Source: Salinispira sp. (lineage in GTDB: Bacteria; Spirochaetota; Spirochaetia; DSM-27196; Salinispiraceae). Taken from it: a stretch of 64,000 nt of DNA. Under the pieces are notes generated by a model. It made no database searches, had not been told where the DNA came from, and saw only the letters and a list, made by a program, of their open reading frames with translations. The stretch covers positions 192,001-256,000 of the forward strand of contig CBDDDG010000010.1 of the NCBI GenBank assembly GCA_965226555.1, written 5' to 3'. Positions 2,748-48,785 of this stretch are shown here, piece after piece. Both the position numbers and the translations under genes were made by a program. Numbering within the stretch: position 1 is the first letter of the stretch; every line of letters begins with the position of its first letter.

Positions 2748-2749
2748 AC

Positions 2750-4195
2750 ATGAATACCGCCAATTCCCGTAGACCGCAGACAATTCTTATTATCTGCGCA
2801 ATCCTCTCATGTATGTGGGCGCTGTCCGCTCAGGAACTACCCGCGCAGGAACTGCCGGACTCAGAAAGCGGAGCATCCGAAGGACCCAGTGATCTTGAAC
2901 AGCTTATCGGAGAAATCAACACAACTTTACGCCAATCTCCTCAGCAATACTCCCTGAGACTTTTCAGGGGCAACCGACTTTTTATTGGCTCCGATCCTCT
3001 TTCGGAATCGCAATTTCACACCGGAAGCATATATAGTGAGTCGGAAATTCCGGTTTTTCGGGCAGATATTCTCACCCGACTACGCGTAGGAACTGCCCGC
3101 ATTGAATTTTCGCAGCCCCTCTCCCTTGAGGAACCGGAAGTGCTCCTGATGTACCAGACAGACATCATTTTCCCTGAGCTGCCGGAAACATTCAGCCACC
3201 TCGATTCTTCGCTGTTCGCGTATTTTACCGTCCATATACGGATGCTCTACGAATACGAAAACCTGCGCTTCAATTTTTACGGCGCGCAGATCGACGTTAC
3301 GGGAGAGCAACGGCGCGAAGGTTCCGGCAGGCCCGGAAGTTCCGGTGTTCTCCCGGGAAGTCCCCTGCTGATATGGCAGGCGCAGGGCGGGCAATCCGGC
3401 AGAGGTGGGCAAGCTGACATAGGCGGGCAAGCTGACATACAGGAATCCCGAAACCTTGCCCGCATACTGTTTAATCGCAAACAGGAGGAAACAGAAAACT
3501 TCCGTTACCGCTACAATTCCCGCGGGGAATTCTATGAATTACAGCAGGTATCGGCGAATTCCGAAAAACGCTTTGTAACACTCAATGAAAATGAGCAGGG
3601 GCTCCGGGTATTGATATTTGATAAAAACTGGTCAACAATAAGCCTGCGCCGCTTTGATGATAAGGGGCGTCTGCGCTACAGCGATATCAAAGACAATGTA
3701 TCAAATAATCAATCTACGACCCACATTCAATACCTCGACAACGGAAATCGGGAAGAAGTTGAAACTTTTTCCCCGGAGAACAATGAGCGCCGAACGTATG
3801 ATGCGGAGAACAATCTGCTCTCATCTCTCAGAAATTTTCCCGACGGCAGGAGTGAGGAACGGAGTTTCACCTATACCGACGGCGGCGACATTCTGCGTGA
3901 GGAATTTCGGGGAATTCTGAGTAACATAGTAACAACATATCAATATGATGGCGATGGCAATGAGGATAGCGAAGATGAAGTTTCCCGAATTGAAACCACC
4001 GAAGACGGATATATTTCACGAATTGTGGAAATAGATGACGATGAAACCCGTGAAACCCGCTACCTTCGCGGGAAGCCGATACTGAGAATTTATCTGAAAG
4101 ACGGAAAGCGCATAGCGGAAGAAGAACTTTTTGAAGATACCGTCATCAGACGCAGAGAATACGATACTGAACCGACGGAAGAACTAACAGAATAG
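2750..4195 (+). CDS. Hypothetical exported protein with YD-like acidic repeats
   Basis: 481 aa ORF with signal peptide; repeated YD/Y-x-D-G motifs in the C-terminal half. Confidence 0.55.
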   Translation: MNTANSRRPQTILIICAILSCMWALSAQELPAQELPDSESGASEGPSDLEQLIGEINTTLRQSPQQYSLRLFRGNRLFIGSDPLSESQFHTGSIYSESEIPVFRADILTRLRVGTARIEFSQPLSLEEPEVLLMYQTDIIFPELPETFSHLDSSLFAYFTVHIRMLYEYENLRFNFYGAQIDVTGEQRREGSGRPGSSGVLPGSPLLIWQAQGGQSGRGGQADIGGQADIQESRNLARILFNRKQEETENFRYRYNSRGEFYELQQVSANSEKRFVTLNENEQGLRVLIFDKNWSTISLRRFDDKGRLRYSDIKDNVSNNQSTTHIQYLDNGNREEVETFSPENNERRTYDAENNLLSSLRNFPDGRSEERSFTYTDGGDILREEFRGILSNIVTTYQYDGDGNEDSEDEVSRIETTEDGYISRIVEIDDDETRETRYLRGKPILRIYLKDGKRIAEEELFEDTVIRRREYDTEPTEELTE

Positions 4196-4321
4196 TCCCG
4201 CAGAATGTGTGGGAGTAATGCCGAACAGCACCGGCAAACCACAGATCGGGAACAAGCCCCAACGGTAATTTGCCGGTCTGTTTCTTATGATGAAGGATAA
4301 ACACCTCCACCTCCGTACGCT

Positions 4322-4921
4322 CTATTGATTAGCCGGTGAATCGATACCTTTTGAACGCGGAGGGTTCTTCTCTACATCAGCCTCTAAGCGTTCAAGTGCC
4401 TGCTGGGCATTAAACTCGGCAAAGGCAGCATTTTCATTTCGCTCAAAAACACTGCCTACCTCATTAAGGAGTGCGTCCTTGGGAAAGTGAACCATAACGT
4501 ACCATGTACCATCCTGAGCAGGATACTGTTCTTGGGTTATAGCTCCCCGCAACTCAATATTGGAGACTTCCTTGGTAACCTGCTCTACAAAGGAAACATA
4601 TTGGGAATCGCCTTCAGCGCCGCCTTCCTGGGCATAGTCCACAAGCATGGTCTCAACAGCTACCGATACCTGCAGGGCAATATCGGCCCGGGCACGGATA
4701 AGCGCCGTACGGCGAGAGAGCGCGGCATCACTAAGTTTGGCTACCCCCAACCCGACAAACTGATCTTCCAGCACAGGCGGGTTCAGGAAAAATTCCGGTA
4801 TATCTGTGAGCTGCGATGATCCCGTCTCAGTCGATTGGGCCGACATACAGGCTGAAAGTAACAGCACTGCAAGCACTGCCAATAGCAGGGATATCTTAAC
4901 GTGTATCTTAATCATATTCAT
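4322..4921 (-). CDS. LPP20-family lipoprotein
   Basis: Lipobox LLSAC; IPEFFLNPP...GLGVAK...A..RARADIA.QV pattern; RBS AGGAGG. Confidence 0.75.
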   Translation of the reverse strand: MNMIKIHVKISLLLAVLAVLLLSACMSAQSTETGSSQLTDIPEFFLNPPVLEDQFVGLGVAKLSDAALSRRTALIRARADIALQVSVAVETMLVDYAQEGGAEGDSQYVSFVEQVTKEVSNIELRGAITQEQYPAQDGTWYVMVHFPKDALLNEVGSVFERNENAAFAEFNAQQALERLEADVEKNPPRSKGIDSPANQ

Positions 4922-4945
4922 CCTCCTGATGAAAAAATAATTTTA

Positions 4946-4998
4946 GAAAGTTTTGCATTGGAAAATTACGCTTGCACAATTTCAGTAGCAAAACATTG
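4946..4998. repeat. Palindromic mini-element, long form (53 bp), flanked by TTTTA direct repeats
   Basis: gaaagttttgcattggaaaattacgcttgcacaatttcagtagcaaaacattg; TTTTA at 4941-4945 and 4999-5003. Confidence 0.85.
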
Positions 4999-5096
4999 TT
5001 TTAGTTATTGTAGAATAATCAGAATAATTGAGTCAAGAACAAAAAAATTCAGATTGTCTCTGATCAGTCGTTGCCAAACAGGAATAATTACGGGTA

Positions 5097-5696
5097 TTAA
5101 AATCGCACATCAGCACGTTCAATAATTTTCTTAATTTCCCTGCTCCCGATCCACGCTTTTATGTTAGTCTCAATGTGTATGAGCTCCATATCAACCTGAT
5201 ACAGTATGGCCTTTGTTCCCTCTATTTGATCAGTTACGGAAGATATTGTACCAATTATTATATAATCCGCCCCTGTTTCCTGACCAATGCGCTTCAGGCT
5301 TTCAAGATTTGCCTCCGACTGCTGATCGACACGCTCTCCGCGGATCTCTCCCCGTTCTTCGGCGCTGGCAACAAGGCTGACTAAACCTGAATTGATAAAT
5401 TCACGCTCAATATCTTTTGTAAAAACACGGGTTTCAATATGCTCACTGGAACGGTTACGAATGGAACCCACAATGAGCACCGGAGCCCGGCTTTCTCTCT
5501 CATGAAATTGATCTATCCAAGGGCGAGAAAGACTGTCAGATATCATTTCTTCTGCAACTAATTTTGAATCAGTATCATTCCAGCGTCCCGATAAATCTGT
5601 AACCGTATCGGCATCAGTACGGGTTACCTGTACAGTGCTACAGGAAGCAAGAAAGAAAAAAGCAGAGCAAAGAATAAGTAATTGTTTCATATTCAC
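5097..5696 (-). CDS. lpoB: Penicillin-binding protein activator LpoB-family lipoprotein
   Basis: Lipobox LASC; DLSGRWNDTDS, NRSSEHI and GADY..G.I motifs. Confidence 0.8.
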   Translation of the reverse strand: MNMKQLLILCSAFFFLASCSTVQVTRTDADTVTDLSGRWNDTDSKLVAEEMISDSLSRPWIDQFHERESRAPVLIVGSIRNRSSEHIETRVFTKDIEREFINSGLVSLVASAEERGEIRGERVDQQSEANLESLKRIGQETGADYIIIGTISSVTDQIEGTKAILYQVDMELIHIETNIKAWIGSREIKKIIERADVRF

Positions 5697-5744
5697 CTCA
5701 CATATTACATATGTTAATTTATTTCTCTAATTTATAACCTGCGG

Positions 5745-6788
5745 TTAACCATCACCCAACACTTCACCTGTTGAATTTAACCGCTGGGCTGTCAAATTTG
5801 CAAATAATTGCGACATAAGATCAGTATCAACAACTGTTTTAACTGTTCTAAGAGCAAGCATTCTGGCCATATTCGCTTCTGCCGCCTGTTCCCTGTTCGT
5901 TTCCTCAACAGTTGCAATAATGCTGCCAGCCTCATTGACAATGTTCAGAACAATGTTCCAGATGACTGTTTCATACCTGCCGGAAGACATAGTGAGTTGC
6001 AGGCTTCCCTGAACAGCCAGAATACCATCATCAGCGGTAGAAAAACCAAGGCGGCTGATTCCCTCGCCGATAAACGCAGCTATTTGACCATCATCATCAC
6101 CTTCTATGTCAACACGGAAAACCATTTCAGACTGCAGGGACTGCCGCTCCCTTTCTATATCTTCCAGACTGGTACCTGATGGACTGATCATTTCGGGAGC
6201 AATAATCTGCAGCTGTCCGCCAAGCCTTTCATTGACAGCGGCAATGACATGGGCGGCATTCAGACGGGCGTAGGCAGTCATAAGACTGTCTGCCGATTCT
6301 GCTGACTCCCTGAAACTTTCAATACGTTTATTGTTTGTGCGAATAAGATCCGCATAAATACTTCCTGTCTCATCCCGATTGAGATAGGCAATAATACTGA
6401 CAAGACCGGATGGATCGCTGACAGGCTCGCTGAAACGGACATTTATGAGTTCCTGCCTGGCCTGCACATGAATGTTATCAACAAGCTCCATTTCCCGCTC
6501 CGTGTACTCAGTATCATCTGCGGTCAGGGAACGGTAGGTATCAGCAATACGTGTATCTACGGCAACTTCGGAACCGAATATTCGAGCAAGGTTCCCTACA
6601 GCATCTTCCTCAGCGGCACGGCGGGTATCGCCGCTGCCCACTGCTGTCAGGTACTCTGCTTCAGGATACATATCTTTAGAGATGAACTCTTCTTCGGGGA
6701 CAATATCTCTCCAAGATTGGTCCGGCTGAGCGGTTGCGCAGGAGAAAAGCAGAGCAAACAGTACTATTACCACAGGCAGTTTCATCAT
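5745..6788 (-). CDS. LPP20-like lipoprotein
   Basis: Lipobox LFSC; YLTAVGSG..RRAAEEDA..NLARIF motif. Confidence 0.65.
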   Translation of the reverse strand: MMKLPVVIVLFALLFSCATAQPDQSWRDIVPEEEFISKDMYPEAEYLTAVGSGDTRRAAEEDAVGNLARIFGSEVAVDTRIADTYRSLTADDTEYTEREMELVDNIHVQARQELINVRFSEPVSDPSGLVSIIAYLNRDETGSIYADLIRTNNKRIESFRESAESADSLMTAYARLNAAHVIAAVNERLGGQLQIIAPEMISPSGTSLEDIERERQSLQSEMVFRVDIEGDDDGQIAAFIGEGISRLGFSTADDGILAVQGSLQLTMSSGRYETVIWNIVLNIVNEAGSIIATVEETNREQAAEANMARMLALRTVKTVVDTDLMSQLFANLTAQRLNSTGEVLGDG

Positions 6789-6794
6789 TTTTTG

Positions 6795-8204
6795 TTATCT
6801 CGGTATATAGGAATATATCAGGTTAAGATTATCTTTCTGATATTCTTTTTCCGCATAATCCTCAGAGAAAAGAATACTGTCAGATTCGTCATAATACTCA
6901 AGAACTATTCTGTGAGATCCCGGGTCAATACGAAATTCACCGCCATAGGCAAAACCGGGGTAGTAGCGCGCAGAGCGTAGGTCGGCCACCTCGCTCGCAT
7001 CTGTCGCTACATCAGTAAATACGCCGAGTACAGTTCCCAAGAGAGGATCTGCTGCGGATGCGGCATCTTTTACTCCTTTATTCAGGAGTCCCTTAATAAT
7101 AGTGCGCGTAATGGTTTTAGCATAAATAAGAGGTTCTTTCAGTTTATACATTTCAGCTCCGACATTCTCCAAACTTTCAACAAGTTCAAGATCTCCCTGC
7201 GGTTCTCCATCAACAACAACCTGTATACGCTTTACATCCGAACCGTGACTGTGCAGAACAGGCAGTTCAAACGTAAATTGGTAGCCCTCAGACATGGCTG
7301 GCCAGAACAGACTTTCAACATCTTCGGTTTCGAGTACTCCATCTTCATTTTCTTTTTGAAGAACAATTAATACCTGATTCGTAAAGGTTTTAATGAATAG
7401 GGTATTTGCCCGTTTTTCCGGCATTCGTCCGGTAAAGGCAAGGACATTGAGCCTTACCTTATCGGTTTCTTCCAGCAGGGGGCTGATATCCGGCTCGGGA
7501 AAGTCATACACGGCAGGCTGCGCCGCGAAGGCTCTGCGAAAGGCATCAGCATCAATACTTGCCCCATCCCAATTTCCATCGGCACGATATACCAGCAGGC
7601 TCAGATAACGCCCAAGAGCTGAATTGTGGAACTCGGTACTGCCCGCCTTTACTTCAACTTCATTGTCTTCAAACTGATTAAGTCCCTCAGCAAGTTCCCC
7701 ATACTTATCTTCAAGGAGATTGAGCTTGTCATTGAGTCGGTTAATTTCCACAAAAGCAGAGTCCAAGTTATTTTCGGCAAGGAAGGATAGTGCTTTGAAA
7801 ACATTTACGTATAGTTCCTCATATGGTTCGCCGGGGTAGTCGATAACAGTATCGTTCAGAAGGAAACTGCCAATTGCCTGCGTTACACTCGCGGTGAATA
7901 GTTCCTCCATGAGGCGCTCGGCCTCGCTGAGATACTCCTGCGCACGGGGATAGTTCCCTGCATAAAAATGCAGCATGCCGATGTCGAGAGACTTCAGTAC
8001 CTGATCGGTCTCAAGATATATTTCATCCTGCTGTTCTGGATCCTCCAGAATATTGAGGGCTTCCTCATATTGGCGATTGTTCGCAAATTCATCTACTTCA
8101 ACGAATTTCTCATTGAGGGTCACGCAACCCATGATAAATGGAACAAGCATTAATAACAACGGAAAGAGGGATCCCGTAGTTTGTATTTTAGTTTTGGTTT
8201 TCAC
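6795..8204 (-). CDS. COG3014-like TPR lipoprotein (commonly found next to lpoB)
   Basis: In-frame GTG at 8204 with RBS GGGAGG; lipobox IMGC; LLNDTVIDYPGEPYE and ADLRS motifs. Confidence 0.7.
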   Translation of the reverse strand: MKTKTKIQTTGSLFPLLLMLVPFIMGCVTLNEKFVEVDEFANNRQYEEALNILEDPEQQDEIYLETDQVLKSLDIGMLHFYAGNYPRAQEYLSEAERLMEELFTASVTQAIGSFLLNDTVIDYPGEPYEELYVNVFKALSFLAENNLDSAFVEINRLNDKLNLLEDKYGELAEGLNQFEDNEVEVKAGSTEFHNSALGRYLSLLVYRADGNWDGASIDADAFRRAFAAQPAVYDFPEPDISPLLEETDKVRLNVLAFTGRMPEKRANTLFIKTFTNQVLIVLQKENEDGVLETEDVESLFWPAMSEGYQFTFELPVLHSHGSDVKRIQVVVDGEPQGDLELVESLENVGAEMYKLKEPLIYAKTITRTIIKGLLNKGVKDAASAADPLLGTVLGVFTDVATDASEVADLRSARYYPGFAYGGEFRIDPGSHRIVLEYYDESDSILFSEDYAEKEYQKDNLNLIYSYIPR

Positions 8205-8238
8205 AGTATTTTGCCTCCCGCAAACTATAAAACAATAA

Positions 8239-8263
8239 GAAAGTTTTCCAATGCAAAACTTTC
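8239..8263. repeat. Palindromic mini-element, short form
   Basis: gaaagttttccaatgcaaaactttc; same arms as the other copies; no clear direct repeat. Confidence 0.65.
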
Positions 8264-8356
8264 TATACCTTGAGGAAATCAAACATATAGATAAGAGAAT
8301 CCTCATTATTTTCAACAAATAATTTATTCAGCCCTGAAATTATAGGCTGTTTTTTT

Positions 8357-8422
8357 ACTATATCAGTTACAATAAAAGTAGGTCAACCCTTTTTCACCGA
8401 TTTTTTGGGAAATAAACATTTG
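8357..8422 (-). promoter_or_regulatory. Sigma70-type promoter with upstream CAAATGTTTATTTCC motif
   Basis: TTGACC (8386-8381)-N18-TATAGT (8362-8357); motif at 8408-8422. Confidence 0.6.
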
Positions 8423-8516
8423 GGAAGCTCTGGAAAAAGCCCGCCCGTTCCCGTATGGGCACACAAGAACGAAGGGCGGGGCATTAATTGCCACAGTGTT
8501 GGCGACAAGTCAACTA

Positions 8517-8849
8517 TTACTGCCGGGTAAACACAACTGAGCCCAATGTTAGCTTATCTCCCTCAATGGAATACTCAACTGTACCCTCCCAGAGGAGTAC
8601 TCCCACTCTGTTTCCTATACAATTCGAGAACGTAAACGATGTCTCCCCGTTTTTATTTGCAGCCGAGTAAATACACGTCACATCATAAAAATGGTCTGTG
8701 AAGGTACCCAAAAGGGTGAATTCAATAGTCCAGTCGTCACCTGATGTATAGACACCAGTTTCTTCTGTCCAACGTCCTATGAATTCACATCCTATCAACA
8801 TAGTCATCATTACAACAACTATAAATAATGGCATTAACTTTTTTTTCAT
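8517..8849 (-). CDS. Small hypothetical lipoprotein
   Basis: RBS AGGAGG; MKKK + hydrophobic stretch + LIGC. Confidence 0.7.
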   Translation of the reverse strand: MKKKLMPLFIVVVMMTMLIGCEFIGRWTEETGVYTSGDDWTIEFTLLGTFTDHFYDVTCIYSAANKNGETSFTFSNCIGNRVGVLLWEGTVEYSIEGDKLTLGSVVFTRQ

Positions 8850-9106
8850 AAAGTTAGCCTCCTAAGAGTTAGTATAGAAATTCCCCAAGGGAACCTCTGG
8901 AAACTCAATATTCGGCAGTGTGAAATACTACGTTTCCAGATATTCCCAATGTTTTCTTACACATAACACATTCAGAAAAACACTGTCAACCCCAAAAATG
9001 TGCTGGTGGGTATACATGAGGAGAGAGAAAACGTACAAGGGGAGCATGCCAACATGCATGGATGATGTTCACCTACTAGGTGAACACGTTACTCTTATTC
9101 AAAGAA

Positions 9107-9454
9107 TCAATCTTTTCGAAATTGCGTCCATTGGACAGCAACACCTTCTGCAACTGTTTTAGTATCTTGGAAAAGAACAAAACTTGTCTGAACCACTGAA
9201 ACAGTAATGTCAATTACATCATCTACTCGCGAGCCATACAGCTCCTGAGCTTTTTCATTAATGAGGTTTCTTAACCCCACTTCACCAAGCGATACAATAT
9301 TATCCAGTTTTACTACTACTCTCCCGAGTATCTCAAACTCATCACGAACTATTGTCGCACTTGTTTCATTAGCAAAAACTGGAGTAACTGTTGTACATCC
9401 ATACATTGTTAGAAATCCAACTAACAATAAAATAACGATAGAAACTTTTTTCAT
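9107..9454 (-). CDS. Small hypothetical lipoprotein
   Basis: RBS AAGGAGG before the MKKVSIVILLLVGFLTMYGC start. Confidence 0.7.
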   Translation of the reverse strand: MKKVSIVILLLVGFLTMYGCTTVTPVFANETSATIVRDEFEILGRVVVKLDNIVSLGEVGLRNLINEKAQELYGSRVDDVIDITVSVVQTSFVLFQDTKTVAEGVAVQWTQFRKD

Positions 9455-9589
9455 ACTTCCATCCTCCTTATCTTTCGATCTTGAATAAGTGTTTTCCACA
9501 GCAAGTACAGCTTCCGCTCCATCTCGCTATTTTCTCCCCCCCCTATTTTTTAAAGTACAAATCGGAAAACAATCAGTCCCCGCCATGGA

Positions 9590-9826
9590 AACGGCAACAG
9601 GGGTTCCCGCGCTCGCTGCCGACCATGCGCCATTGCCCTGTGTTAGTTCTGTAATGGTATGGTTTGCGGCCGGCACAGGAACTGTAATAGTCTCCGACCA
9701 GTTGGTATTGCTGTCAGCGCTATGGAGAAGGTGATACTCGGTAATTTCGCTGCTGCCCGTATCTTCCGACACGGCCAATGGAGCAATTAGTTGCCCATTC
9801 CCCGCTTTAAGGGTTGGGCACGCATT
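9590..9826 (-). pseudogene. Fibronectin type III domain remnant
   Basis: DTGSSEITEYHLLH...TITELT/QGNGAWS aligns with the Fn3 domain at 55.5-55.8 kb but lacks the YDVRVRAVN strand and is frameshifted upstream. Confidence 0.7.
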
Positions 9827-30087: not shown

Positions 30088-30114
30088 CAAAATTTTGCAT
30101 TTTGTAAAACTTTA
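30088..30114. repeat. Palindromic mini-element, short form, upstream of hsdM
   Basis: Core ttttgcattttgtaaaacttt identical to 38701-38721. Confidence 0.7.
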
Positions 30115-30135
30115 TAATTGTATATACTTTGCGCT

Positions 30136-31718
<1,583 letters not shown>

Positions 31719-31722
<4 letters not shown>

Positions 31723-32165
31723 GCGGAATGAGTGGAATGAGCGGAGTTAATTACAGCAAACTGGAAAAATCGCTTGCGGAGTTGAAAGAGCAATATGAAA
31801 ACTATCGAACATTGGACACACAAAACCTGTCCGATGTGAACCAACGAGCCGTAAAAAATTCAGTTATCAAATGTTTTGAATTTGTCTATGACACATTGTG
31901 GAAAACAGTAAAGAAATACCTACAAGACCATGGAATTATTAATATGCCTCATTCTCCTGTCGGCATTTTCAGAGAGGCGCATAAAAATTTGTTAATTGAA
32001 GATTTGGAAGGGTGGATTGATGAAAAAACCGGCTACAACCAATTCAGAATAGATAGCGCGCACGATTATAGCGAAGAAAAAGCGAAAGGCGTATTGTCTC
32101 AAGTTGGCAACTTCATTGAAGATGCTACAGAAATTTATGAAAAAATGACTGCGGAAAATGAGTAA
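31719..32165 (+). CDS. HEPN protein (nucleotidyltransferase substrate-binding/HI0074-like), putative RNase toxin
   Basis: IKCFEFVYDTLWKTVK; R-x4-H-x-Y motif RIDSAHDY. Confidence 0.85.
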
Positions 32166-33633
32166 AGAACGGCACATTAAAGAAAAGCTCATAGATTTGG
32201 AGCCGAAGCAACTACAGTTGCTGAAAACAATTATTACGCGCCACATTCCCAACAAAACCGTTTGGGCCTACGGCTCCCGCGTAACATGGAAGGCATCGGA
32301 AACATCCGATTTGGATTTGGTTGTTTTTGGCTCTCATTCAGGCAAAATATTTGACCTGAAAGAATCCTTTGTTGAGAGTTCCCTTCTGATTTCGGTTGAT
32401 GTAATGGATTGGGAAAGCATTCCCGACAGCTTCAAAGAAAACATTAGAAAGAAGTATGTGGTGATTCAGCAAAGCTCCGTGCCGGAGGGGTGGCGGGAAG
32501 TGAAGTTCGAAAACATAGCCCATTTGGTCAAAAATACATGGCGAGTCGGTGATGAAAAATTACCATATGTAGGACTAGAACATATTGATAAGAACAGACT
32601 AAGGTTAAATAGTGTTGGAAATTCTGATTCTATCTCAAGCAATAAATTCAGATTTGCCGTTGGAGATACTCTTTTTGGAAGGTTAAACCCATATTTTAGA
32701 AAAGTCATAAAGCCGAAGTTTGAAGGAATTTGCTCTACGGATATTTGGGTTGTCCGACCAAAAGAAAATGTAAACAAAGATTATCTCTTTTACTTTTTTG
32801 CGAATCAAGAACTAGTGGATATTGCCTCATCATCATCAATGGGCACAAGTCTGCCGAGAGCAGATTGGGATTTTCTTTCAGAAACCACATGGAAACTCCC
32901 CCCGCCCCCCGAACAAAAAGCCATTGCCGAAGTCCTATCATCTCTGGACGACAAAATAGACCTGCTCCATCGCCAAAACACAACTCTGGAAAATATGGCG
33001 CAGACCTTGTTCCGCAAGTGGTTTGTGGAAGATGCGGATGAGGGATGGAAAGATGTTGAGTTAGGTGAGACCGTCAATATAGCCATTGGGAGAACCCCGC
33101 CAAGAAAAGAACATGAATGGTTTTCTAAGAAACCAGGTGATTGGAAATGGGTCTCCATTAAGGACATGGGAAAATGCGGGGTGTATATTTTTGACACCGC
33201 TGAATACCTGACTCAAGCAGCAGTTGAAAAATACAATATCCCTGTCATACCAAATAAAACCGTCATTCTTAGTTTTAAAATGACACTAGGAAGAGTAGGA
33301 ATAACAACCGAAGATATGCTATCCAATGAAGCAATAGCGCATTTCAAGTTTCGTCCCGGCACACCGTATAGCCGAGAGTATCTCTATTTTTTCCTGAAAT
33401 TATTCAAGTTTGCCTCTCTGGGAAGCACATCCTCAATCGTAACATCAATAAACACGGAAATGATTAGATCATTCAAAATTCCCATACCAGATGCAGAATC
33501 TATGTCCAAATTCGAAGGTATCGGTAAACTACTATTTGAGGGAATACACTCTAACCAATCACAAATCCGTACACTCGAAAACCTACGGAATCTGCTTTTG
33601 CCAAAACTGATGAGCGGGAAAGCGAGAATATGA
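32158..33633 (+). CDS. hsdS: Fusion of a minimal nucleotidyltransferase (MNT) and a type I specificity subunit HsdS
   Basis: N-terminal YGSR...SDLDL...VDV; then PEGW, PPPEQKAIAEVLSSLDDKI, two TRDs, LLPKLMSG. Confidence 0.9.
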   Translation: MSKERHIKEKLIDLEPKQLQLLKTIITRHIPNKTVWAYGSRVTWKASETSDLDLVVFGSHSGKIFDLKESFVESSLLISVDVMDWESIPDSFKENIRKKYVVIQQSSVPEGWREVKFENIAHLVKNTWRVGDEKLPYVGLEHIDKNRLRLNSVGNSDSISSNKFRFAVGDTLFGRLNPYFRKVIKPKFEGICSTDIWVVRPKENVNKDYLFYFFANQELVDIASSSSMGTSLPRADWDFLSETTWKLPPPPEQKAIAEVLSSLDDKIDLLHRQNTTLENMAQTLFRKWFVEDADEGWKDVELGETVNIAIGRTPPRKEHEWFSKKPGDWKWVSIKDMGKCGVYIFDTAEYLTQAAVEKYNIPVIPNKTVILSFKMTLGRVGITTEDMLSNEAIAHFKFRPGTPYSREYLYFFLKLFKFASLGSTSSIVTSINTEMIRSFKIPIPDAESMSKFEGIGKLLFEGIHSNQSQIRTLENLRNLLLPKLMSGKARI

Positions 33634-38721: not shown

Positions 38722-38784
38722 TGATCTTGCTTCGATTTAACGGACACTCTTCTAAGCACGATACTATAGGGAGAGGAGAGTGTT

Positions 38785-39069
38785 ATGGAAACACGGAAAG
38801 TCAGAAAATTCTATGATGAGGATTTTAAGGAACAGGCTGTGGAGCTTGCCAAAGAAATTGGCACGAAGCAGGCGACGGAAAAGCTGGGTATAGCAAGTTA
38901 TCATACCCTCGCGAAATGGGTTCGGAACGACCAGAAAGGTCCCGAGTTTCGGGAACTTCAGGAAGCCCTGGCCGAGAACAAACGATTGAGAAAGGAACTG
39001 CGCGCCGAGAAAAAGGCGGTGGCAATACTCAATGATGCAATGGTTTTTTTTGCAGAAAGGAGAACCTGA
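38785..39069 (+). CDS. IS3 OrfA
   Basis: YDEDFKEQAVEL HTH plus leucine-zipper-like tail. Confidence 0.9.
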   Translation: METRKVRKFYDEDFKEQAVELAKEIGTKQATEKLGIASYHTLAKWVRNDQKGPEFRELQEALAENKRLRKELRAEKKAVAILNDAMVFFAERRT

Positions 39070-39955
39070 AATGAAGTATCGGGGAATTGAGCAGCTGAAG
39101 CAGACCGGACATGCTGTTGCACCATGCTGCAAACTTCTGAAGGCGTCCAGCTCGGGATTCTATGACTGGCTTAAGCGAGAACCGTCCACAAACACCCGCA
39201 GGGATGATGAGCTTGCGGGTAAAATTCTGCGTATGTATACTGAAAATAAGGGATGCTACGGTTCGCCCCGAATTCACCGGCTGCTGCATCTTCATGGTGA
39301 AGAAATCGGAAGGAACCGGGTCGCCCGGCTTATGAGGGAATCGGGGCTCAATGCGGGGAGAACGAAGGCATATCGCCCGCGAACAACAATGAGCAATCCA
39401 TCCCAGAAGAAGTCTCCGCGGGTGTTTCGCATTGAAAGCTCCACGGTTACGAAAGCGAATGAGGTCTGGGCATCGGACCTCACGTACCTGCCCGCCGGCG
39501 CAGGATTTGCGTACCTTGTTGTGGTTCTGGACATCTATACCCGGGAAATTAAAGGCTGGAATGTCAGTGATTCCATGGAGAGTAAACAGACAGAAAATGC
39601 CCTGTTACAGGCCGTACGGAGAACTCCTGGGGAGTTGAATAGCGTGGTCTTTCATTCAGACCAGGGAACGCAGTATTGCGCGCAGAGCATTCGAGATAAA
39701 CTGGAAATGTTACATATTACCCAGTCGATGTCGAGAAGGGGAAATTGCTACGATAATGCCTTTGTGGAAAGTTTTTTTCACACGCTGAAGAATGAGCTTG
39801 GTAAGCCGAGGTTTCAGAACCTTCAGGAGGCGCGGAAGATAGTTTTTGAATACATCAACTGGTATAACCGAGAGAGGCTTCATTCTTCTCTTGACTATAT
39901 GAGTCCGATGAATTATGCTTTGAAAACAGCAGGAGAATCCTGTTGTGTTGCTTAG
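39032..39955 (+). CDS. IS3 OrfB DDE transposase
   Basis: YGSPR, WASDLTY, HSDQGTQY, GNCYDNAFVESFF, YNRER.HSSL. Confidence 0.95.
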   Translation: MMQWFFLQKGEPEMKYRGIEQLKQTGHAVAPCCKLLKASSSGFYDWLKREPSTNTRRDDELAGKILRMYTENKGCYGSPRIHRLLHLHGEEIGRNRVARLMRESGLNAGRTKAYRPRTTMSNPSQKKSPRVFRIESSTVTKANEVWASDLTYLPAGAGFAYLVVVLDIYTREIKGWNVSDSMESKQTENALLQAVRRTPGELNSVVFHSDQGTQYCAQSIRDKLEMLHITQSMSRRGNCYDNAFVESFFHTLKNELGKPRFQNLQEARKIVFEYINWYNRERLHSSLDYMSPMNYALKTAGESCCVA

Positions 39956-40005
39956 CGGATTGTCCGAATTTTCGAAGCAAGATCACTTTCACATAGAATA
40001 ACCCC

Positions 40006-41745
40006 ATGAAATTGACTCTAAAAAAAGAATACAAAAGCATTACCTTAGCAGATAAAAACGATTTTGAAAGCTTAGACCTACCAAGTTTTTCCGTTATAAC
40101 AGGAACAAACGGAAGCGGCAAAACACATTTCCTCGAAGCAATCGACAACACTCACATTTCAATTGATAGCAACAAAGTAGCCATTTTATTTAACTACAAC
40201 AACTTTCTTTTAGACAATACAGTGGGTGAAAATGCGCACGGAGACAAGCGGCGCCCCAAAAAATACAACGATGTTATTGGACTTTTTGAAAATGATATGT
40301 TTCTTGGACTTATAGGACATTGCAATGAAAATACTGCCTGTGAATTAGTTGACGAATTCCTTAACAACGGCAAATCTGAAAAGTTTCATAATTTAATTTT
40401 GAAATGCATCAAACAAGCAGGACACCCGGGAAGAATGCCAGAAGGTATTCAGTGGTTTCGATATAGTTTTAAGGTTTTAGAAGAAAACAACTTCATAAAA
40501 GACTTAAAAGAATCTGGATTACCAACACAAGAGTTTCTCCATAACTATAAAATGATGAGTTTAAGTTCTCTGATAGGCAGGTCTATATCCAATGACTATA
40601 AAATTTACTTGTCAGATTCTTACAATGCTAGACTCAAAAGCAAACAATTTTGCTCAGAAAACACACAAAACTATCAAAACCCCTTGAAGATATTCAATGA
40701 TGTGTTAAAAAAATACTCCTGCAATGATTTTTTGTTTGTTGAGAATAAAAAAATTAAGGATGCCGAACCCAGAGATATCCTATCTTTGGGCGAAACGACT
40801 TCAGAAAAGTTTAAAAAACATCTAATTCAATTAAAGTTGGTAAATCCTGAAGGATTGGAAATTGATGTTGAGCAATTATCTTCTGGAGAAAAAACTCTGC
40901 TCGCCCTGTCTTCCTTTGTGTATAAAAATACTTACAACAGAAAACTAAGCGGAATGTATAGAGAGGACATTGTTTTATTATTGGATGAGATAGATACCAA
41001 TCTGCACCCGTCCATGGTGAAACAAATGTTGGAAGTTATCAAAGATGTATTTGTAGGTGAGTATAAATACGATGTCATTATGGTTACACACTCGCCCACA
41101 ACTATTGCACTCGCGCCTGAAGGATCGGTTTTTGTAATGCGCAGGAAAAACGATGTGGGAAAGCGTCTGGAACAAACAACTAACGAATATGCCGTAAATA
41201 CTCTCACGGAAGGTTTTGCTACTCTAGACAAAGGCATTCATCTATTTGACCAAGTTGCCAGAGAAAAAATCTCAATAATCACCGAAGGAAACAACACCCA
41301 ATACATAGAAAAGGCCTTATCATTTTATTACGAAGGCGATGATATTGGAATATTAACCGGAGCTGAGGGCAGGTCTGGAAAAAACATACTGAAAACTTTG
41401 TTTCAATTGTTTACGAGGTTCAATCATAACAACAAAGTAATTTTTGTCTTTGACTGCGATACTGCTCAAGAAATGTCTTCTTTGAAAGATGAAAACAATA
41501 CCTATGCTTTTGTATTTGAGAAAAACGAAGAAAATGACAAAGTTAAAAAAGGTATTGAGAATTTATTTCCCAAAGAAAGATTTTTAGATGAGTTTTATAC
41601 ACAAAAACCATTAGACGATGGAGGGCAAACAGAACATTTGGATAAAAATTGTTTTATGGATTTTATGTTGAATGATGGAACCGAACAGGATTTTGCGAAA
41701 TTCCGCCCGTTAATAGATAAAATTAACGAACTAAAGAAAGGTTAA
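40006..41745 (+). CDS. ABC ATPase with C-terminal TOPRIM-like domain (OLD-like architecture)
   Basis: GTNGSGKT, LSSGE, LLDEID..LHP, THSP; ITEG...FDCD...IENLF. Confidence 0.8.
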   Translation: MKLTLKKEYKSITLADKNDFESLDLPSFSVITGTNGSGKTHFLEAIDNTHISIDSNKVAILFNYNNFLLDNTVGENAHGDKRRPKKYNDVIGLFENDMFLGLIGHCNENTACELVDEFLNNGKSEKFHNLILKCIKQAGHPGRMPEGIQWFRYSFKVLEENNFIKDLKESGLPTQEFLHNYKMMSLSSLIGRSISNDYKIYLSDSYNARLKSKQFCSENTQNYQNPLKIFNDVLKKYSCNDFLFVENKKIKDAEPRDILSLGETTSEKFKKHLIQLKLVNPEGLEIDVEQLSSGEKTLLALSSFVYKNTYNRKLSGMYREDIVLLLDEIDTNLHPSMVKQMLEVIKDVFVGEYKYDVIMVTHSPTTIALAPEGSVFVMRRKNDVGKRLEQTTNEYAVNTLTEGFATLDKGIHLFDQVAREKISIITEGNNTQYIEKALSFYYEGDDIGILTGAEGRSGKNILKTLFQLFTRFNHNNKVIFVFDCDTAQEMSSLKDENNTYAFVFEKNEENDKVKKGIENLFPKERFLDEFYTQKPLDDGGQTEHLDKNCFMDFMLNDGTEQDFAKFRPLIDKINELKKG

Positions 41746-41778
41746 ATCGAAATCGAATATGACCACCATCTACGAATC
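41736..41778 (+). repeat. 43 bp direct repeat (second copy at 42566-42608): gene end + spacer + first 20 nt of an hsdR-like start
   Basis: 40/43 identical by eye. Confidence 0.9.
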
Positions 41779-41840
41779 TTGCAAATCCGCGTGATAAATA
41801 CGATGATAGTCGCAATCAATAATTAGATAGGGTAAAACTG

Positions 41841-42575
41841 ATGCCAGATATAGATAATAAAACAGTACACGCCGCGTATGCTGAAGCCAAGCAGGTTTAT
41901 GAAGGCTTAGAAAAAAAAGCCGCAGCCGACAAGCGCTTGGTTAAGGAGCACGGCATGAACCGTTCATCGGCAAGCGATTATGTAAAACGCTTCCAGGAAA
42001 TGATGGCGGGTAAAGTATACAAACGAACAATTAATATTTATGCGACCGACTATTATTTGGGTCAAATATTGGCGGACTATGGCGTAGAAAAGTTACGATT
42101 TGCCATCCATTCTGTTAATTTACATATCGCGTACTATAAAAAGAAAACAGGCGCCAATTCAGGTGAAACTCAAAAAATTGTGTCACGCTATGAAGAAAAA
42201 ATGCGATTAGCAGAATTCTCCCATCCTGATGAGCTGGACGAAGACGACAGCAAGCAGATTTTCGAAGGGGCAAAAAAGCACGTGGTAGTCAATTCGTATG
42301 AGCGCAACCCGAAAGGGCGAGTCGAATGCATCGAGTATTATGGCCTTCGTTGTGCAGTGTGTGAATTTGATTTTGAGAAAACCTACGGCACTGTCGGCGC
42401 AAGGTATATTCATGTGCATCATCTAACGCCGATATCGGAAATAGGGCGTGAATACACTCTTGACCCGATTGAAGATTTGCGTCCGGTGTGTCCAAATTGC
42501 CACGCAATGTTGCACAAAAACAAACCGCCCTACACACTAGAAGAGTTGCGGGAAAAAATAAAAACGAAAGGTTAA
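41841..42575 (+). CDS. HNH endonuclease (McrA-like C-terminal domain)
   Basis: ERN, CAVC, IHVHH, DLRPVCPNCHAMLH. Confidence 0.9.
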   Translation: MPDIDNKTVHAAYAEAKQVYEGLEKKAAADKRLVKEHGMNRSSASDYVKRFQEMMAGKVYKRTINIYATDYYLGQILADYGVEKLRFAIHSVNLHIAYYKKKTGANSGETQKIVSRYEEKMRLAEFSHPDELDEDDSKQIFEGAKKHVVVNSYERNPKGRVECIEYYGLRCAVCEFDFEKTYGTVGARYIHVHHLTPISEIGREYTLDPIEDLRPVCPNCHAMLHKNKPPYTLEELREKIKTKG

Positions 42576-42588
42576 AGCGAAATCGAAT

Positions 42589-42744
42589 ATGACCCCCATC
42601 CACGAATCCAACATAGAAAAACTTGCCATTGAGCTCCTCCGGCAGCAGGGCTACACCTACATTGCGCCCGATCAGCAGGAAACGGATCGGGACAGCGCCG
42701 CGGAAGTTGTTCTGAAGCCGCGGCTGCAACAGGCAATTGACTAG
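42589..42744 (+). pseudogene. Duplicated hsdR 5' fragment (150 bp, 51 aa)
   Basis: 42589-42738 aligns ungapped with 43850-43999. Confidence 0.92.
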
Positions 42745-42890
42745 TTCATAAGCCAATTCAACCATACCAGCCCCCCATTCCCGACTCCCCGAAAAAAATT
42801 CACAAATTTTGCAAACTTTTTTCAAATTCTTTTCAAAAAACATAGTCAAAAATGACAGTTCTCCCGTTATAGATATAGCAGGAGGTATGT

Positions 42891-43853
42891 ATGAGTAATG
42901 CCGGATACAATATCCATGATATTGCTTTTAAGAGCATCTATGGCACCCCCGAGGCGGCAGCCGACATTCCACGAATAATTTTTCCAAAGAACATCGTTAA
43001 CATTATGGACCTAGATGCTATTCGCATCGAAAACACCATCTACATTGACAAAGGGCGTGAGATGCTCTGCGACCTCATTCTCATTATTCCCCTCAAAGGG
43101 GAATTCGAGGGTTTACGAATTGTACTGCTTATTGAGCACAAAAGCATGTTTGATCCGAAGGTCAGCGAACAGTTCGATAAATACCAGAAAGCCCTCATAA
43201 ACAGCAGGACATTTCAGGCGCAGACCGATCTTCTTGTTCTGGTGCTGTGGTATCATGGCGAAGCACTATGGGAAGGAAATCTCAGTTTTCACAGTTCCCA
43301 AGATATACATACACACATACCGGAAAAATTGTACACAATGATGGAAAAATACCTTGCGAGGCCAAAGGTTCTCAATAGGCCTGTGATGGTCGATTTGAAT
43401 AGGATGAGCGAGGATAAGTTTACCCGGGGGTCAGACGGGGTTGTGTTGACAGGGGGAGCTCTGTGCTATATTATGCGGAAAGTCAGTAAGACAGGCGATG
43501 AAGACTTGCGGAAGGTTGCGAAGTATCTGAAAGAGCTTCCCGCAGAGAATTCCCGAGAGATGATCCCGAACCTTCTGCTCTATCTGAAGGCCTTGAAACT
43601 GGATACACGCTTTGAAAAAATCAACAGGGAAATAAATCCCGAAGGAGAAAGGGTTATGATGAAAAAAGTTCAGATGAGTGATTGGTTTGTCAACCAAGGC
43701 ATGGAGAAGGGCATTGAAAAGACGGCTCGGAATATGATCCGGATCGGAATAGAAGAGTCCGATGTGGTTGCCGCTACAGAACTTTCACCGGAACGGGTGC
43801 GTGAACTCAGGGGACGTGAATTAAACGAATCTGCGGCATCTACAGGACAATGA
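42891..43853 (+). CDS. Rpn/YhgA-like PD-(D/E)XK nuclease (copy D, intact)
   Basis: HDIAFK, CDLI, LLIEHKS, WYHG, QGMEKGIEKTARNMI; internal GAAGGAG + ATG at 43656. Confidence 0.88.
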   Translation: MSNAGYNIHDIAFKSIYGTPEAAADIPRIIFPKNIVNIMDLDAIRIENTIYIDKGREMLCDLILIIPLKGEFEGLRIVLLIEHKSMFDPKVSEQFDKYQKALINSRTFQAQTDLLVLVLWYHGEALWEGNLSFHSSQDIHTHIPEKLYTMMEKYLARPKVLNRPVMVDLNRMSEDKFTRGSDGVVLTGGALCYIMRKVSKTGDEDLRKVAKYLKELPAENSREMIPNLLLYLKALKLDTRFEKINREINPEGERVMMKKVQMSDWFVNQGMEKGIEKTARNMIRIGIEESDVVAATELSPERVRELRGRELNESAASTGQ

Positions 43854-46800
43854 CCACCCTCTACGAATCGGACATTGAAGAACTTGCCATTGAGCTCCTC
43901 CGGCAGCAGGGCTACACCTACATTGCGCCCGATCAGCAGGAAACGGAGAGGGACAGTACAGCGGAAGTTATCCTGAAGCCGCGGCTGCAACAGGCAATTC
44001 ACGACCTCAACCCGAACCTGCCCGACATGGTCAAAACGCAGGCAATGCGGCAGGTAACCGACCTGTCGTCCGCGCAGGTGGCGGAGACCAACGCCAATTT
44101 TTACAAAATGCTCATTGAAGGCGTGCCGGAGGAATATCAGCAAAACAATAACACGGTCGGCGCGAGGCTCCGCCTTATCGATTTTGAAAATGCGGCAAAC
44201 AACGACTTCGCTGTCTGCAATCAATTCTCCGTGAAGGAGAACAGAACGACCAGACGCCCCGATGTGGTGCTCTTTGTGAACGGCTTGCCGATGGGGGTCA
44301 TTGAGCTGAAAAATCCTGCCGATGAAAAGGCAACCATTCATAGCGCCTTTGTCCAGCTGCAAAACTATAAGCATTCCATTCCCACGCTGTTTCGTTATAA
44401 CGGCATTTTGGTTGCCTCGGACGGGCTGAATGCACAGGCAGGATCGCTGACGGCGGGTGAGGCGCGCTTTATGGCGTGGAAAACTGTTGATGGTACGTTT
44501 GAAGACCCTGCCACAACACCGCAGCTGGAAACCCTCATTAAGGGGATGCTACGCCCCGCTGTTCTGCTGGATATCATACGCTACTTTACCGTATTTGAAA
44601 CCACAGGCAGAGAAGACCCGAAAACCGGTACCATTGCCACAGAAAAAGAAAAGAAAATTGCAGCCTACCACCAATACCACGCCGTTAAAAAAGCGGTGAG
44701 CTCCACCATCCGAGCTGCCGGCGCTGCCCCCCAACTCGGCGCGCCCCAAATAGGCAGCGCGCAGCCCCAACCCGGCACCGCGCAGCCCCAACTCGGCACA
44801 GCCCAACCCGGCACCGCGCAGCCCCAACTCGGCACAGCCCAACCCGGCACCGCGCAGCCCCAACCCGGCGCTGCCCCCCAACCCGGCACCGCGCAGCCCC
44901 AACCCGGCGCTGCCCCCCAACCCGGCACCGCGCAGCCCCAACCCCCCGCAACAGAAACGCACGAAGACCCCGAGGCCTACGGATTGCCCGGGGTGAAAAG
45001 CCAGCCGGCGGGCGACCGCAAAGCGGGGGTACTGTGGCATACGCAGGGCAGCGGTAAATCGTTGTCCATGCTGTTCTATGCGGGGCTACTGGTGATCGAT
45101 CGGCGCATGGCAAACCCAACCATTGTTATCATTACCGACCGCAATAATTTAGACGAGCAACTATTCGAGGCCTTCACCGCGGGCAAGGACCTGCTGCGGC
45201 AGGAACCCGTGCGGGCGAAAAATCGGCGCCAGCTTAAAAACCTGCTCACAACACTCGGCGGCGGCGTGGTTTTCTCCACCATTCAGAAATTCTCCCCCGA
45301 AGACGACAGCGAAGAGTTCGATGTGCTATCGGAGCGGGAAAACATCGTTGTTATTGCCGATGAAGCCCACCGCAGCCAATACGGCTTTGGCGCAAAGACC
45401 CATTTTGTGAAAGACGGCGCAAAAACCCGCTACGGCTTCGCAAAATACCTGCGGGACGCGCTGCCGAGGGCATCCTTTGTGGGCTTTACGGGCACCCCAA
45501 TTGAGAAAGACGATGCCTCCACGCCGGCGGTTTTCGGCAACTACATAGACATCTACGACATAGAACAGGCGGTTAAAGACGGCGCAACCGTGCCGATTTA
45601 CTACGAATCGCGCCTTGCGCGCGTTCATCTCAAAGAAGAATACACCGAAGAACTGGACGCGGAAATTGAAGAAATTGTTGAAAACAGAGAATTAGATGAT
45701 GCGGAAAGAGCCAAGGCGAAATCGGCGCGGCAGGAGGCCATTATCGGGCATGAAGACCGGCTGCGGACGGTTGTTGCGGACATTCTCCAGCACTTTGCCG
45801 AGCGGCGCGATGCCTGCCAAGGCAAGGCGATGATTGTTACTACCAGCCGCCGCATTGCCGTTGCAATGTATGCCGACATCATCTCCCTCCGTCCGCACTG
45901 GCATAACCAGAACGCCGACAAGGGGGCAGTAAAAATCGTTATGACCTCATCATCGAGCGACCCGCCCGAATGGCAGCAGCACTCAACGACAAAAGATGAG
46001 AAAACAGCAATAAGAAAACGCTTTGTTATTCCCGAAGATTCTTTGCAGATGGTCATTGTCTGCGATATGTGGCTGACGGGTTTTGACGCGCCCTGTCTGG
46101 ACACCCTCTACATTGACAAAATAATGAGCGGACACAATTTGATGCAGGCAATAGCGCGGGTGAACAGGGTCTATAAGGACAAGGCGGGCGGGCTCATTGT
46201 CGACTACATCGGCATTGCCTCCAATTTGAAGCGCGCCCTCGCAGCCTACACCCAAAACGGCGGGCGGGGAAGTCCCGCGCTCAAACAGGAAGATGCCGTA
46301 AAGCTCATGCTGGAAAAATACGATGTGGCAGCGAACCTCTTTGCCGGTTTCAACTACAAACCGTACTTCACGGCAGACACCGCCGGCAAGCTGACCATCA
46401 TTTTAGAAGCGCAAGAACACATTCTTGCTCTGGAAAACGGCAGGGAACGCTTTTCGCAGGCGGTCTACCTGCTTGCCAGAGCATTTGCCATGTCCGTTCC
46501 CTCTGCCGCGGCAATGAACATAAAGGCGGAGGTAGGGTTTTTTCAGGCGGTGCGGGCGCGGCTCATAAAGTTTGAACCGACAGGCAGCGGAAAAAGCACT
46601 GTTGAAATGGAAACGGCAATTCGGCAAATTGTCGACAAGGCCCTTGCGGCAGACGGCGTAATCGACATATTCGATGCCGCAGGCATAAAGAAGCCCGATG
46701 TATCCATTCTCTCCGACGATTTTCTGGCAGAAATACGGGGAATGCGGCATAAAAATCTTGCTCTGGCGCTCCTGAAAAAAATTCTCAACAACGAAATACG

Positions 46801-47338: not shown

Positions 47339-47782
47339 ATGGAACTGTCGTTGACACAATATGAAGCAGATACCTTATTTGCTCTGGAAAAACATCACAG
47401 AGAAACTGAGTCATACACATTTCCAAGTCTTGGCGGAAGAATAAATATTCCCTTATATTTTGAAGATAGTAGCGAGAAATTCCATATGGATATAACTCGG
47501 AGTCGAATAGAACTCAAGAAATATACCTTCCAAAACCGTGTGCGTAAAACCATTGCATTAGTTAGAATAGATATACATGGCCCGCCACATCGGAATCCAG
47601 ATGGAGAAGAAATTCCATGTCCTCATATGCACAAATATCGCGAAAAATGGGGCGATAAATGGGCGGAACCTTTACCAAATATATTTAGTGAAATATCAGA
47701 TACATGGCAAACACTTGAGCATTTTATGCAATTCTGCAATATTAAAACTAAGCCGGAAATCATAGGGGATTTGTTTACATGA
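47339..47782 (+). CDS. DUF6978-like protein
   Basis: LVRIDI.GPPHRNPDGEEIPCPHMHKY.E.WGDKWA. Confidence 0.7.
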   Translation: MELSLTQYEADTLFALEKHHRETESYTFPSLGGRINIPLYFEDSSEKFHMDITRSRIELKKYTFQNRVRKTIALVRIDIHGPPHRNPDGEEIPCPHMHKYREKWGDKWAEPLPNIFSEISDTWQTLEHFMQFCNIKTKPEIIGDLFT

Positions 47783-48549
47783 TCATTAATGAAATAGAAC
47801 ATATTCTACAGGATTATACTAACTGGCTTAAAGATAAGACCGTACTGAAACAAATTGATGCGCGCTGGATTGAAATTACCACGCCGTATCTCGACCGCCA
47901 CAATGACTATCTCCAAATATATGCCCGGAAAGATGGAAATAAGTTTGTTTTAACCGATGACGGATACATAATACATGACCTAATCAATTCAGGATGTTCT
48001 CTGAATTCCCCAAAACGCCAGCAATTGCTTCATACAACATTGAATGGATTTGGCATACACATGAAAGATGAACAATTAATTGTGCATAGCGATCCTGAAG
48101 AATTTTCTCAGAAGAAACACAATATCATTCAAGCAATGCTCTCGGTAAATGACCTTTTCTATCTGGCATCACCATATATTGAAAATCTATTCCTTGAAGA
48201 TGTTACAAAATGGCTTGATATATCCAACATACGGTATACCCCAAATTTAAAGTTTGCGGGAAAAAGCGGATATGATCATGTGTTTAATTTCGTTATTCCT
48301 AAATCAAGAAAACAACCAGAGCGCATTGTGCAAACATTGACAAATCCAAAGAAGAATAATGCTGAAAATTTGGTGTTCAAGTGGCTGGATACGCGGGAAA
48401 TGCGATCGGCAGAGTCAGAACTATTCGCCGTCCTAAACGATGGGGATAATGGAATTTCTCATGGTGTTGCGGAAGCATTCAAACGCTATGACATAATACC
48501 AATGGCATGGTCAGAAAGAGAAAATAATCAGGAGAGATTGGCGGGTTAA
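47779..48549 (+). CDS. DUF1828/DUF1829-like protein
   Basis: ITTPYLDRHND...LTDDG; GKSG..H.FNFVIP; coupled to the upstream gene. Confidence 0.75.
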   Translation: MIINEIEHILQDYTNWLKDKTVLKQIDARWIEITTPYLDRHNDYLQIYARKDGNKFVLTDDGYIIHDLINSGCSLNSPKRQQLLHTTLNGFGIHMKDEQLIVHSDPEEFSQKKHNIIQAMLSVNDLFYLASPYIENLFLEDVTKWLDISNIRYTPNLKFAGKSGYDHVFNFVIPKSRKQPERIVQTLTNPKKNNAENLVFKWLDTREMRSAESELFAVLNDGDNGISHGVAEAFKRYDIIPMAWSERENNQERLAG

Positions 48550-48711: not shown

Positions 48712-48785
48712 TGGGCCCAGTAGGACTTGAACCTACGACCAATGGATTATGAGTCCACTGCTCTAACCAACTGAGCTATGGGCCC
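48712..48785 (-). tRNA. tRNA with CAT anticodon, most likely tRNA-Ile2 (lysidine); CCA not encoded
   Basis: GGGCCCA acceptor stem; TAGCTCAGTTGGTTAGAGC D arm; GGACTCATAATCC anticodon arm; GGTTCAAGTCC T arm. Confidence 0.9.

Follow-up and report, generated by a model that had tools for sequence, protein, structure and literature searches.

Defense-like genes are commonly embedded between the hsd genes of type I restriction-modification (RM) operons, on the same strand, a pattern described without the mechanism considered here, and left unexplained, in the accessible text of the studies concerned (bioRxiv 10.1101/2024.01.29.577857; PMC11411939; PMC12707154). The closest described class of event is insertion with long target duplication (Furuta, Abe and Kobayashi, 2010; PMC2853133), in which an insert of < 20 kb without an integrase lies between unique, imperfect direct repeats of > 30 bp that cover a start or stop, and the target stays intact. 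We have analyzed a window of 64,000 nucleotides (G000:C10:192001-256000; contig CBDDDG010000010.1) from a 2.98-Mb metagenome bin of Salinispira sp. (genome G000), which holds a type I operon in the order hsdM, hsdS, a 10-kb variable interval and hsdR. Two pieces of the hsdR start (hereafter stubs A and B) stand upstream of the intact gene and are probably the scars of two gene captures, one of a McrA-like HNH endonuclease gene and one of an Rpn-family nuclease gene, via homologous exchange combined with an illegitimate joint. The anatomy is that of insertion with long target duplication, of which an earlier account is reportedly that of Nobusato et al. (2000), and represents no new kind of event; new here are the serial case, the population alleles and the cross-phylum footprint.

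Repeats of 43 and 150 bp, both without further copies elsewhere in the genome, bracket inserts of 787 and 1111 bp in which a domain search found no integrase or transposase. A lone mcrA-type HNH gene as cargo and RM genes as targets are both already reported (PMC2853133), whereas in the present locus the hsdR start of a resident type I operon serves as the target, two times in series; in its accessible text that paper neither names hsdR nor examines an origin of the two copies from different alleles. Partial gene duplication with one homologous and one illegitimate joint, following one-sided homology, is also known next to homology-facilitated illegitimate recombination (HFIR) in a laboratory plasmid system (PMC3240628), with identical homology and duplications of 109–950 bp, whereas the present stubs are shorter and diverged; the one-sided homology recurs here, but the change is additive, with no deletion of recipient DNA at the illegitimate joint, so that the process resembles HFIR without having its classical outcome. 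The orphan immunity arrays of Vibrio cholerae type VI secretion and Rhs loci (PMC5361080) likewise grow serially without an integrase through a conserved anchor and have been likened to integrons, but growth there displaces the old effector, whereas the present captures leave earlier genes in place, with a fragment of the anchor gene as the scar. No sign of dedicated cassette machinery emerged: an integron is contradicted by the lack of an adjacent tyrosine integrase (PF00589 matches lie on contigs C2 and C12 only), of a fixed crossover point (right edges vary) and of a junction inverted repeat among the 25 longest of 135 listed, a search made without an attC model. The hallmarks of an insertion sequence (terminal inverted repeats and a short target duplication) are absent as well, the Rpn copies having variable ends, in contrast to the IS3 element at 38722-39985, which shows both. 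A search of the open-access literature, with subscription papers mostly outside its range, found no published description of stubs at hsd gene ends.

A first-pass annotation of this DNA had noticed three hsdR starts, which are borne out: 20 nt at 41759 (stub A, 41759-41778, 19/20 identical to the hsdR start), 150 nt at 42589 (stub B, 42589-42738, 136/150) and the full gene at 43850. Such matches lie far beyond chance, since 30 Markov resamplings of the region yielded at best 30 matching letters for a 43-mer and 17 for a 20-mer. The first-pass unit lengths (830 bp for HNH, 1261 bp for Rpn) and the coordinates of the 150-bp duplication around the Rpn unit are also correct; the 43-bp repeat around the HNH gene (41736-41778 / 42566-42608) is present in imperfect form (40/43), as is the 150-bp one. 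The mismatches of stub B are grouped at repeat positions 7-31 and 99-123, and a 67-bp core is identical. Both the ATPase and HNH proteins do end in KG*, with the qualification that KKG is native to the ATPase (identical in homologue P0122, KKGA in P0123), so that only the HNH gene likely took its end from the repeat. Similarly, the Rpn stop overlaps the hsdR ATG as had been stated, while ATGA also closes two other Rpn copies and is therefore Rpn's own stop. One contig from run X4 (possibly the source sample, and so not independent) covers 41544-42649 with zero differences and joins stub A, HNH and the start of stub B; the multicopy Rpn gene is bridged end to end by none of the contigs listed. 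The contig depth of the 67-bp core, 16 vs. 8-10, is compatible with two copies, although depth is no copy number, and a low-depth X4 contig departs from stub B into sequence without a match in this genome.

Related populations hold other alleles of the locus. In run X1, which comes from another study, one contig passes from the ATPase end through stub A into hsdR letters instead of HNH letters (8 letters past the junction, together with an overlapping contig), and a second covers 42587-42762 with 12 differences (7 listed, 5 from a 30-nt overlap with the first contig). The X1 allele deduced from these sequences would consist of the ATPase, a stub and the Rpn leader, with no HNH gene, its stub agreeing with hsdR at 10 of the 14 positions that distinguish B from hsdR; the expectation that gene content here varies in relatives is thus upheld. 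This would supply an empty-site allele for the HNH unit; none was seen for the Rpn unit. The stub-to-Rpn junction is common to X1 and the window, both X1 and X2 hold stub A plus HNH behind different upstream sequence, and one X1 sequence joins the HNH end to mid-Rpn sequence (27/30 letters match 43404-43433), where the partner could be any close Rpn copy. X1 diverges from the window by 12/176 in stub B and by 2/328 and 8/343 in the ATPase; run X3 holds a distant ATPase homologue only. No close hsdR or DNA match was found in 40 relatives or 7 same-family genomes, so there is no assembled sister locus, and a metagenome pattern scan returned 2 matches, both chance.

The codon positions of stub differences bear on their origin. 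A decayed local duplicate is expected to place 0.44-0.49 of its differences at third positions, whereas 22 pooled stubs show 103/172 third-position and 101/172 synonymous differences (P 3e-5 to 0.002). Second positions account for none of the 14 differences between stub B and the gene, and of the 8 residue changes, 7 are found in at least 2% of 123 homologues vs. 41-43% expected (P about 0.01). This third-position excess, together with the natural-variant residues, makes it likely that stub and gene derive from two different working hsdR alleles; an interpretation of stub B as a decayed copy of hsdR was dropped on the codon and homologue tests. Such an origin would bear on how insertion with long target duplication comes about, a question still without an answer in 2010.

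A census of 130 hsdR loci (33/33 of a first set, 57/68 rows of a second, from which our own genome, 7 entries without an N-terminus and 3 with little upstream DNA were left out, and 40/42 rows of a third) was reduced to 118 by dropping 12 whose start was not located or that had < 1 kb of upstream sequence (for L017 the start was placed manually). Defined as a 25-600 bp repeat covering the hsdR start with a copy upstream, stubs occur at 8/118 loci vs. 9/821 other gene starts (P 4.5e-4), a control of 54 interior hsdR positions giving a mean of 0.28 and a maximum of 1. The stub-bearing loci form 8 separate clusters among 85 (80% identity), including other phyla, and L017 has two hsdR stubs. Mirror stubs appear at the hsdS end (8/108), hsdM end (6/86) and hsdS start (3/104), while the outer ends are nearly free of them (hsdM start 0/71, hsdR end 1/98); with three loci of different gene order not reclassified, the balance of 24/415 inner vs. 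1/169 outer ends (P 0.003) places stubs on the side facing the variable interval. The first-pass reading of insertion at the hsdR 5' end is thus partly supported: the footprint recurs at hsdR starts but is not specific to them, with mirror stubs at hsdS and hsdM ends and about 20 repeat-bracketed inserts at other genes of this genome. Relative to the ATG, left edges of the hsdR stubs range from -26 to +3 (6/8 within -1 to +3) and right edges from +21 to +164, a pattern of a homology boundary rather than a fixed site; over all stubs, edges fall at a start or stop codon. Stub lengths are mostly 43-82 bp, with 86-96% identity. A donor fragment would be expected to give the arrangement of L028 and L029, where the hsdR stub is fused to sequence that reads like the 3' end of an hsdS gene. 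Captured genes at other loci are varied and mostly defense-like (type II methyltransferase cluster, DUF4143 ATPase, ABC-3C, RhuM, HEC-01, AbiD).

Under the account that we favor, incoming DNA would carry its own hsdR with a new gene immediately before it and would recombine with the resident hsdR 5' region, while the other donor end would join illegitimately just within the start of the resident hsdR. That start would stay behind as the stub and the incoming start would complete the gene, so that hsdR would remain whole and capture would add instead of replacing. Host recombination (RecA) would be sufficient, with no need of an integrase, and linear and re-circularized donors would yield an identical product; recA, comEC and dprA are present in the genome. 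The donors, the route and the order (Rpn first, HNH second, with X1 as the single source for the order) are what we infer. Several observations weigh against this account. The hsdR stubs taken alone show a weak excess (28/48 third-position, P 0.04-0.11 on the corrected null), and the 2% homologue threshold was our own choice. Among 43 low-copy repeat pairs in the genome, 32 were examined and about 20, by eye, look like inserts between copies of host DNA; those touching gene ends elsewhere show no third-position excess (22/11/12 by codon position), and several at other genes are 98-99% identical, which would fit duplication in place or donors of the same species. Only 1/36 loci of the replication set had an hsdR-start stub, vs. 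5/27 and 2/55 in the others, and the loci are related rather than independent, so the P values overstate the significance. No Rpn-less allele was seen in the related-run contigs, and at its right junction the Rpn insert shares a 6-nt microhomology with the start of hsdR, such that this step could be local. Matches to comEC and dprA also occur in 10/14 control genomes and are no proof of competence; classical HFIR, moreover, mostly deletes rather than duplicates (PMC3240628).

The form of donor divides this account. A linear molecule with a long anchor is plausible, though short of an even chance, whereas a re-circularized fragment entering by a single crossover is a doubtful possibility. The latter corresponds to the strict first-pass proposal, in which a circle of a gene plus a piece of hsdR integrates through a single crossover in the repeat and can later be released; its integrase-free, additive character and the preservation of hsdR have stood, and single crossover has a laboratory precedent. 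In E. coli conjugation, linearized DNA with one-sided homology mostly gave duplications of 109-950 bp by re-circularization and single crossover, 10x commoner than true HFIR (PMC3240628). Long repeats would be lost fastest, leaving short ones, and internal remnants in L020 and L080 show stub erosion, all in keeping with a circle. Most stubs, however, have the length and divergence given above, which are short for a RecA crossover, and B differs from the X1 stub up to position 121, far past the 20 nt it has in common with stub A. These features lean to a linear donor, although survival of short repeats could mimic them. The proposed circles and excision have found no support: no joint skipping 830 or 1261 bp is listed in the contigs of four runs, contigs being prone to lose rare variants, and the HNH-less X1 allele lacks the private changes of B and so is no recent pop-out of the window allele.

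Local insertion with target duplication, in which a copy of a resident gene, for example one of the Rpn copies, would enter at a break or through template switching, with illegitimate joints on both sides and decay of the stub from an initially identical state, appears unlikely for the locus as a whole. It would account for the Rpn copies of 93-94% identity in the same genome, the microhomology at the hsdR start, the 43-bp repeat beginning inside ATPase-native codons, the roughly 20 similar inserts without codon bias and a second Rpn unit between 226-bp repeats in a housekeeping region (see below), but it predicts neither the start-codon edges in 6/8 other genomes nor the pooled third-position excess and the zero second-position changes of B. 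For the Rpn step alone, the insert may be local or may come from a same-species donor. That Rpn or another enzyme catalyzes a dedicated, site-directed insertion at hsdR starts is very improbable: 7 of the 140 Rpn matches in the genome do lie within inserts bracketed by unique repeats, but 133 do not, right edges vary, cargo elsewhere is unrelated, and no evidence that Rpn transposes was reported in the accessible text of PMC10400941. An assembly chimera of strain variants, against which the first-pass annotation had warned, would fit a metagenome bin with 6.67% contamination, the coexistence of several alleles in related samples and the unbridged Rpn unit; this is barely credible given the X4 contig joining A, HNH and B without a difference, the recurrence of the A-to-HNH and B-to-Rpn junctions in another study's runs, the 7-9% divergence of the repeats and the same anatomy in other genomes.

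Overall, it is likely that candidate anti-phage genes have been added here by ordinary recombination without an integrase and are marked by hsdR leftovers. Stubs at inward-facing hsd ends provide a countable footprint of such additions and an order of events, and flag recently captured candidate defense genes. A broader and speculative view, which we consider rather doubtful, is that type I restriction operons act as integrase-free cassette arrays, with conserved gene ends as landing pads and stubs as new pads for swapping neighbors between strains, that this would be a main embedding route for defense genes, and that in this spirochaete the promoter and antitoxin of the captured Rpn gene would now drive hsdR expression; if so, L071 (six hsdS-end stubs) and L017 would be longer arrays. 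At L071 (G357; 1924-9601, oriented as hsdR), the stretch between hsdS and hsdR alternates six hsdS 3'-end copies with TPR-rich paralogues, which we take to be FRG-like.

Homologues of the captured HNH protein carry the name 5-methylcytosine-specific restriction protein A; truncation of the HNH gene was considered from C-termini, and those of homologues are too variable to show it. The Rpn gene is 93-94% identical to copies on C12, C14, C18 and C25, and its leader and ATGA end are common to other Rpn copies in the genome. Its family (PF04754) has 140 matches in 2.98 Mb, many broken or in tandem, well beyond the 26 copies that count as a high number in PMC10400941, where the label of putative transposase is also judged not to apply. 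The locus resembles the Rpn toxin with an intragenic antitoxin described there in its sequence features alone, namely a PF04754 gene, an internal promoter-like site, a ribosome-binding site and a small in-frame reading frame; promoter-like sites number 4 vs. 4.5 in shuffles, that at 43446-43474 matching 11/12 positions. No flanking target duplications appear in the accessible text of that paper, whereas 7/140 matches lie between long repeats here, too few for such repeats to be a constant trait of Rpn insertion. A second Rpn unit of this kind lies at G000:C21:116354-118470, between 226-bp repeats of 99% identity in a housekeeping region.

Table 1. Features of the type I operon and its captured genes (window coordinates).
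Feature	Coordinates	Strand	Basis
hsdM, type I methyltransferase subunit	30118..31722	+	PF02384, PF12161
hsdS, fused to nucleotidyltransferase domain; left border of variable interval	32158..33633	+	PF01420, PF18765
ABC-ATPase, TOPRIM-like C-terminus, embedded gene	40006..41745	+	AAA_21; best PADLOC match ATPase-Toprim_I-B, E 5.5e-23
43-bp repeat copy 1: 23 nt of ATPase end and spacer, then hsdR stub A (41759-41778)	41736..41778	+	only two copies in genome
McrA-like HNH endonuclease, 244 aa, captured gene 1; candidate modification-dependent restriction enzyme	41841..42575	+	PF01844
43-bp repeat copy 2 (40/43); gives HNH stop and start of stub B	42566..42608	+	sequence comparison
hsdR stub B, 150 nt, 136/150 identical to hsdR start	42589..42738	+	sequence comparison
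13-nt junction filler and multicopy Rpn leader; homology to other Rpn copies starts near 42752	42739..42890	+	
Rpn/YhgA-family nuclease gene, 320 aa, captured gene 2	42891..43853	+	PF04754
Sigma-70-like promoter (11/12) inside rpn, directed at predicted RpnS and hsdR	43446..43474	+	consensus match only
Predicted RpnS antitoxin (65 aa), small ORF in frame with rpn, preceded by GAAGGAG at 8 nt; stop overlapping hsdR ATG	43656..43853	+	sequence; analogy with PMC10400941
Intact hsdR, 1131 aa	43850..47245	+	TIGR00348 over cut-off; Pfam

Besides the ABC-ATPase, HNH and Rpn genes, the hsdS-hsdR interval contains an AAA_13 gene and the IS3 element, with VWA and DnaJ genes on the opposite strand. The IS3-family element (38722-39985) has a 4-bp target duplication and has inserted at the edge of a short palindromic sequence with further occurrences at 30089, 38693, 48560 and 48631. 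The ATPase (40006-41745), whose closest homologue bears the name Salinispira sp., is a mosaic, its C-terminal half being near-identical to P0122 and its N-terminal half very different. Within hsdR, an in-frame tandem repeat insert occupies 44700-44960, and an X1 contig skips 44698-45010. A DUF6978 and DUF1828/1829 gene pair (PADLOC PDC-M24) lies at 47339-48549, between hsdR and a tRNA (48712-48785); a tRNA-integrated island was rejected, no duplicated tRNA end having been found. Elsewhere in G000, inserts between repeats of housekeeping gene starts or ends are located at C16:11119-12908, C16:26584-27119, C22:286534-288122, C23:34974-35982 and C10:162113-164173, with genes (named by reading translations) for a topoisomerase subunit, an ABC ATPase and others. 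Orphan hsdS pieces at G000:C22:9988-15698 and C21:413492-414748 have conserved regions in common with the window hsdS (87-97%) and are possible donors for specificity switching; those on C22 surround an ABC-3C-like cluster.

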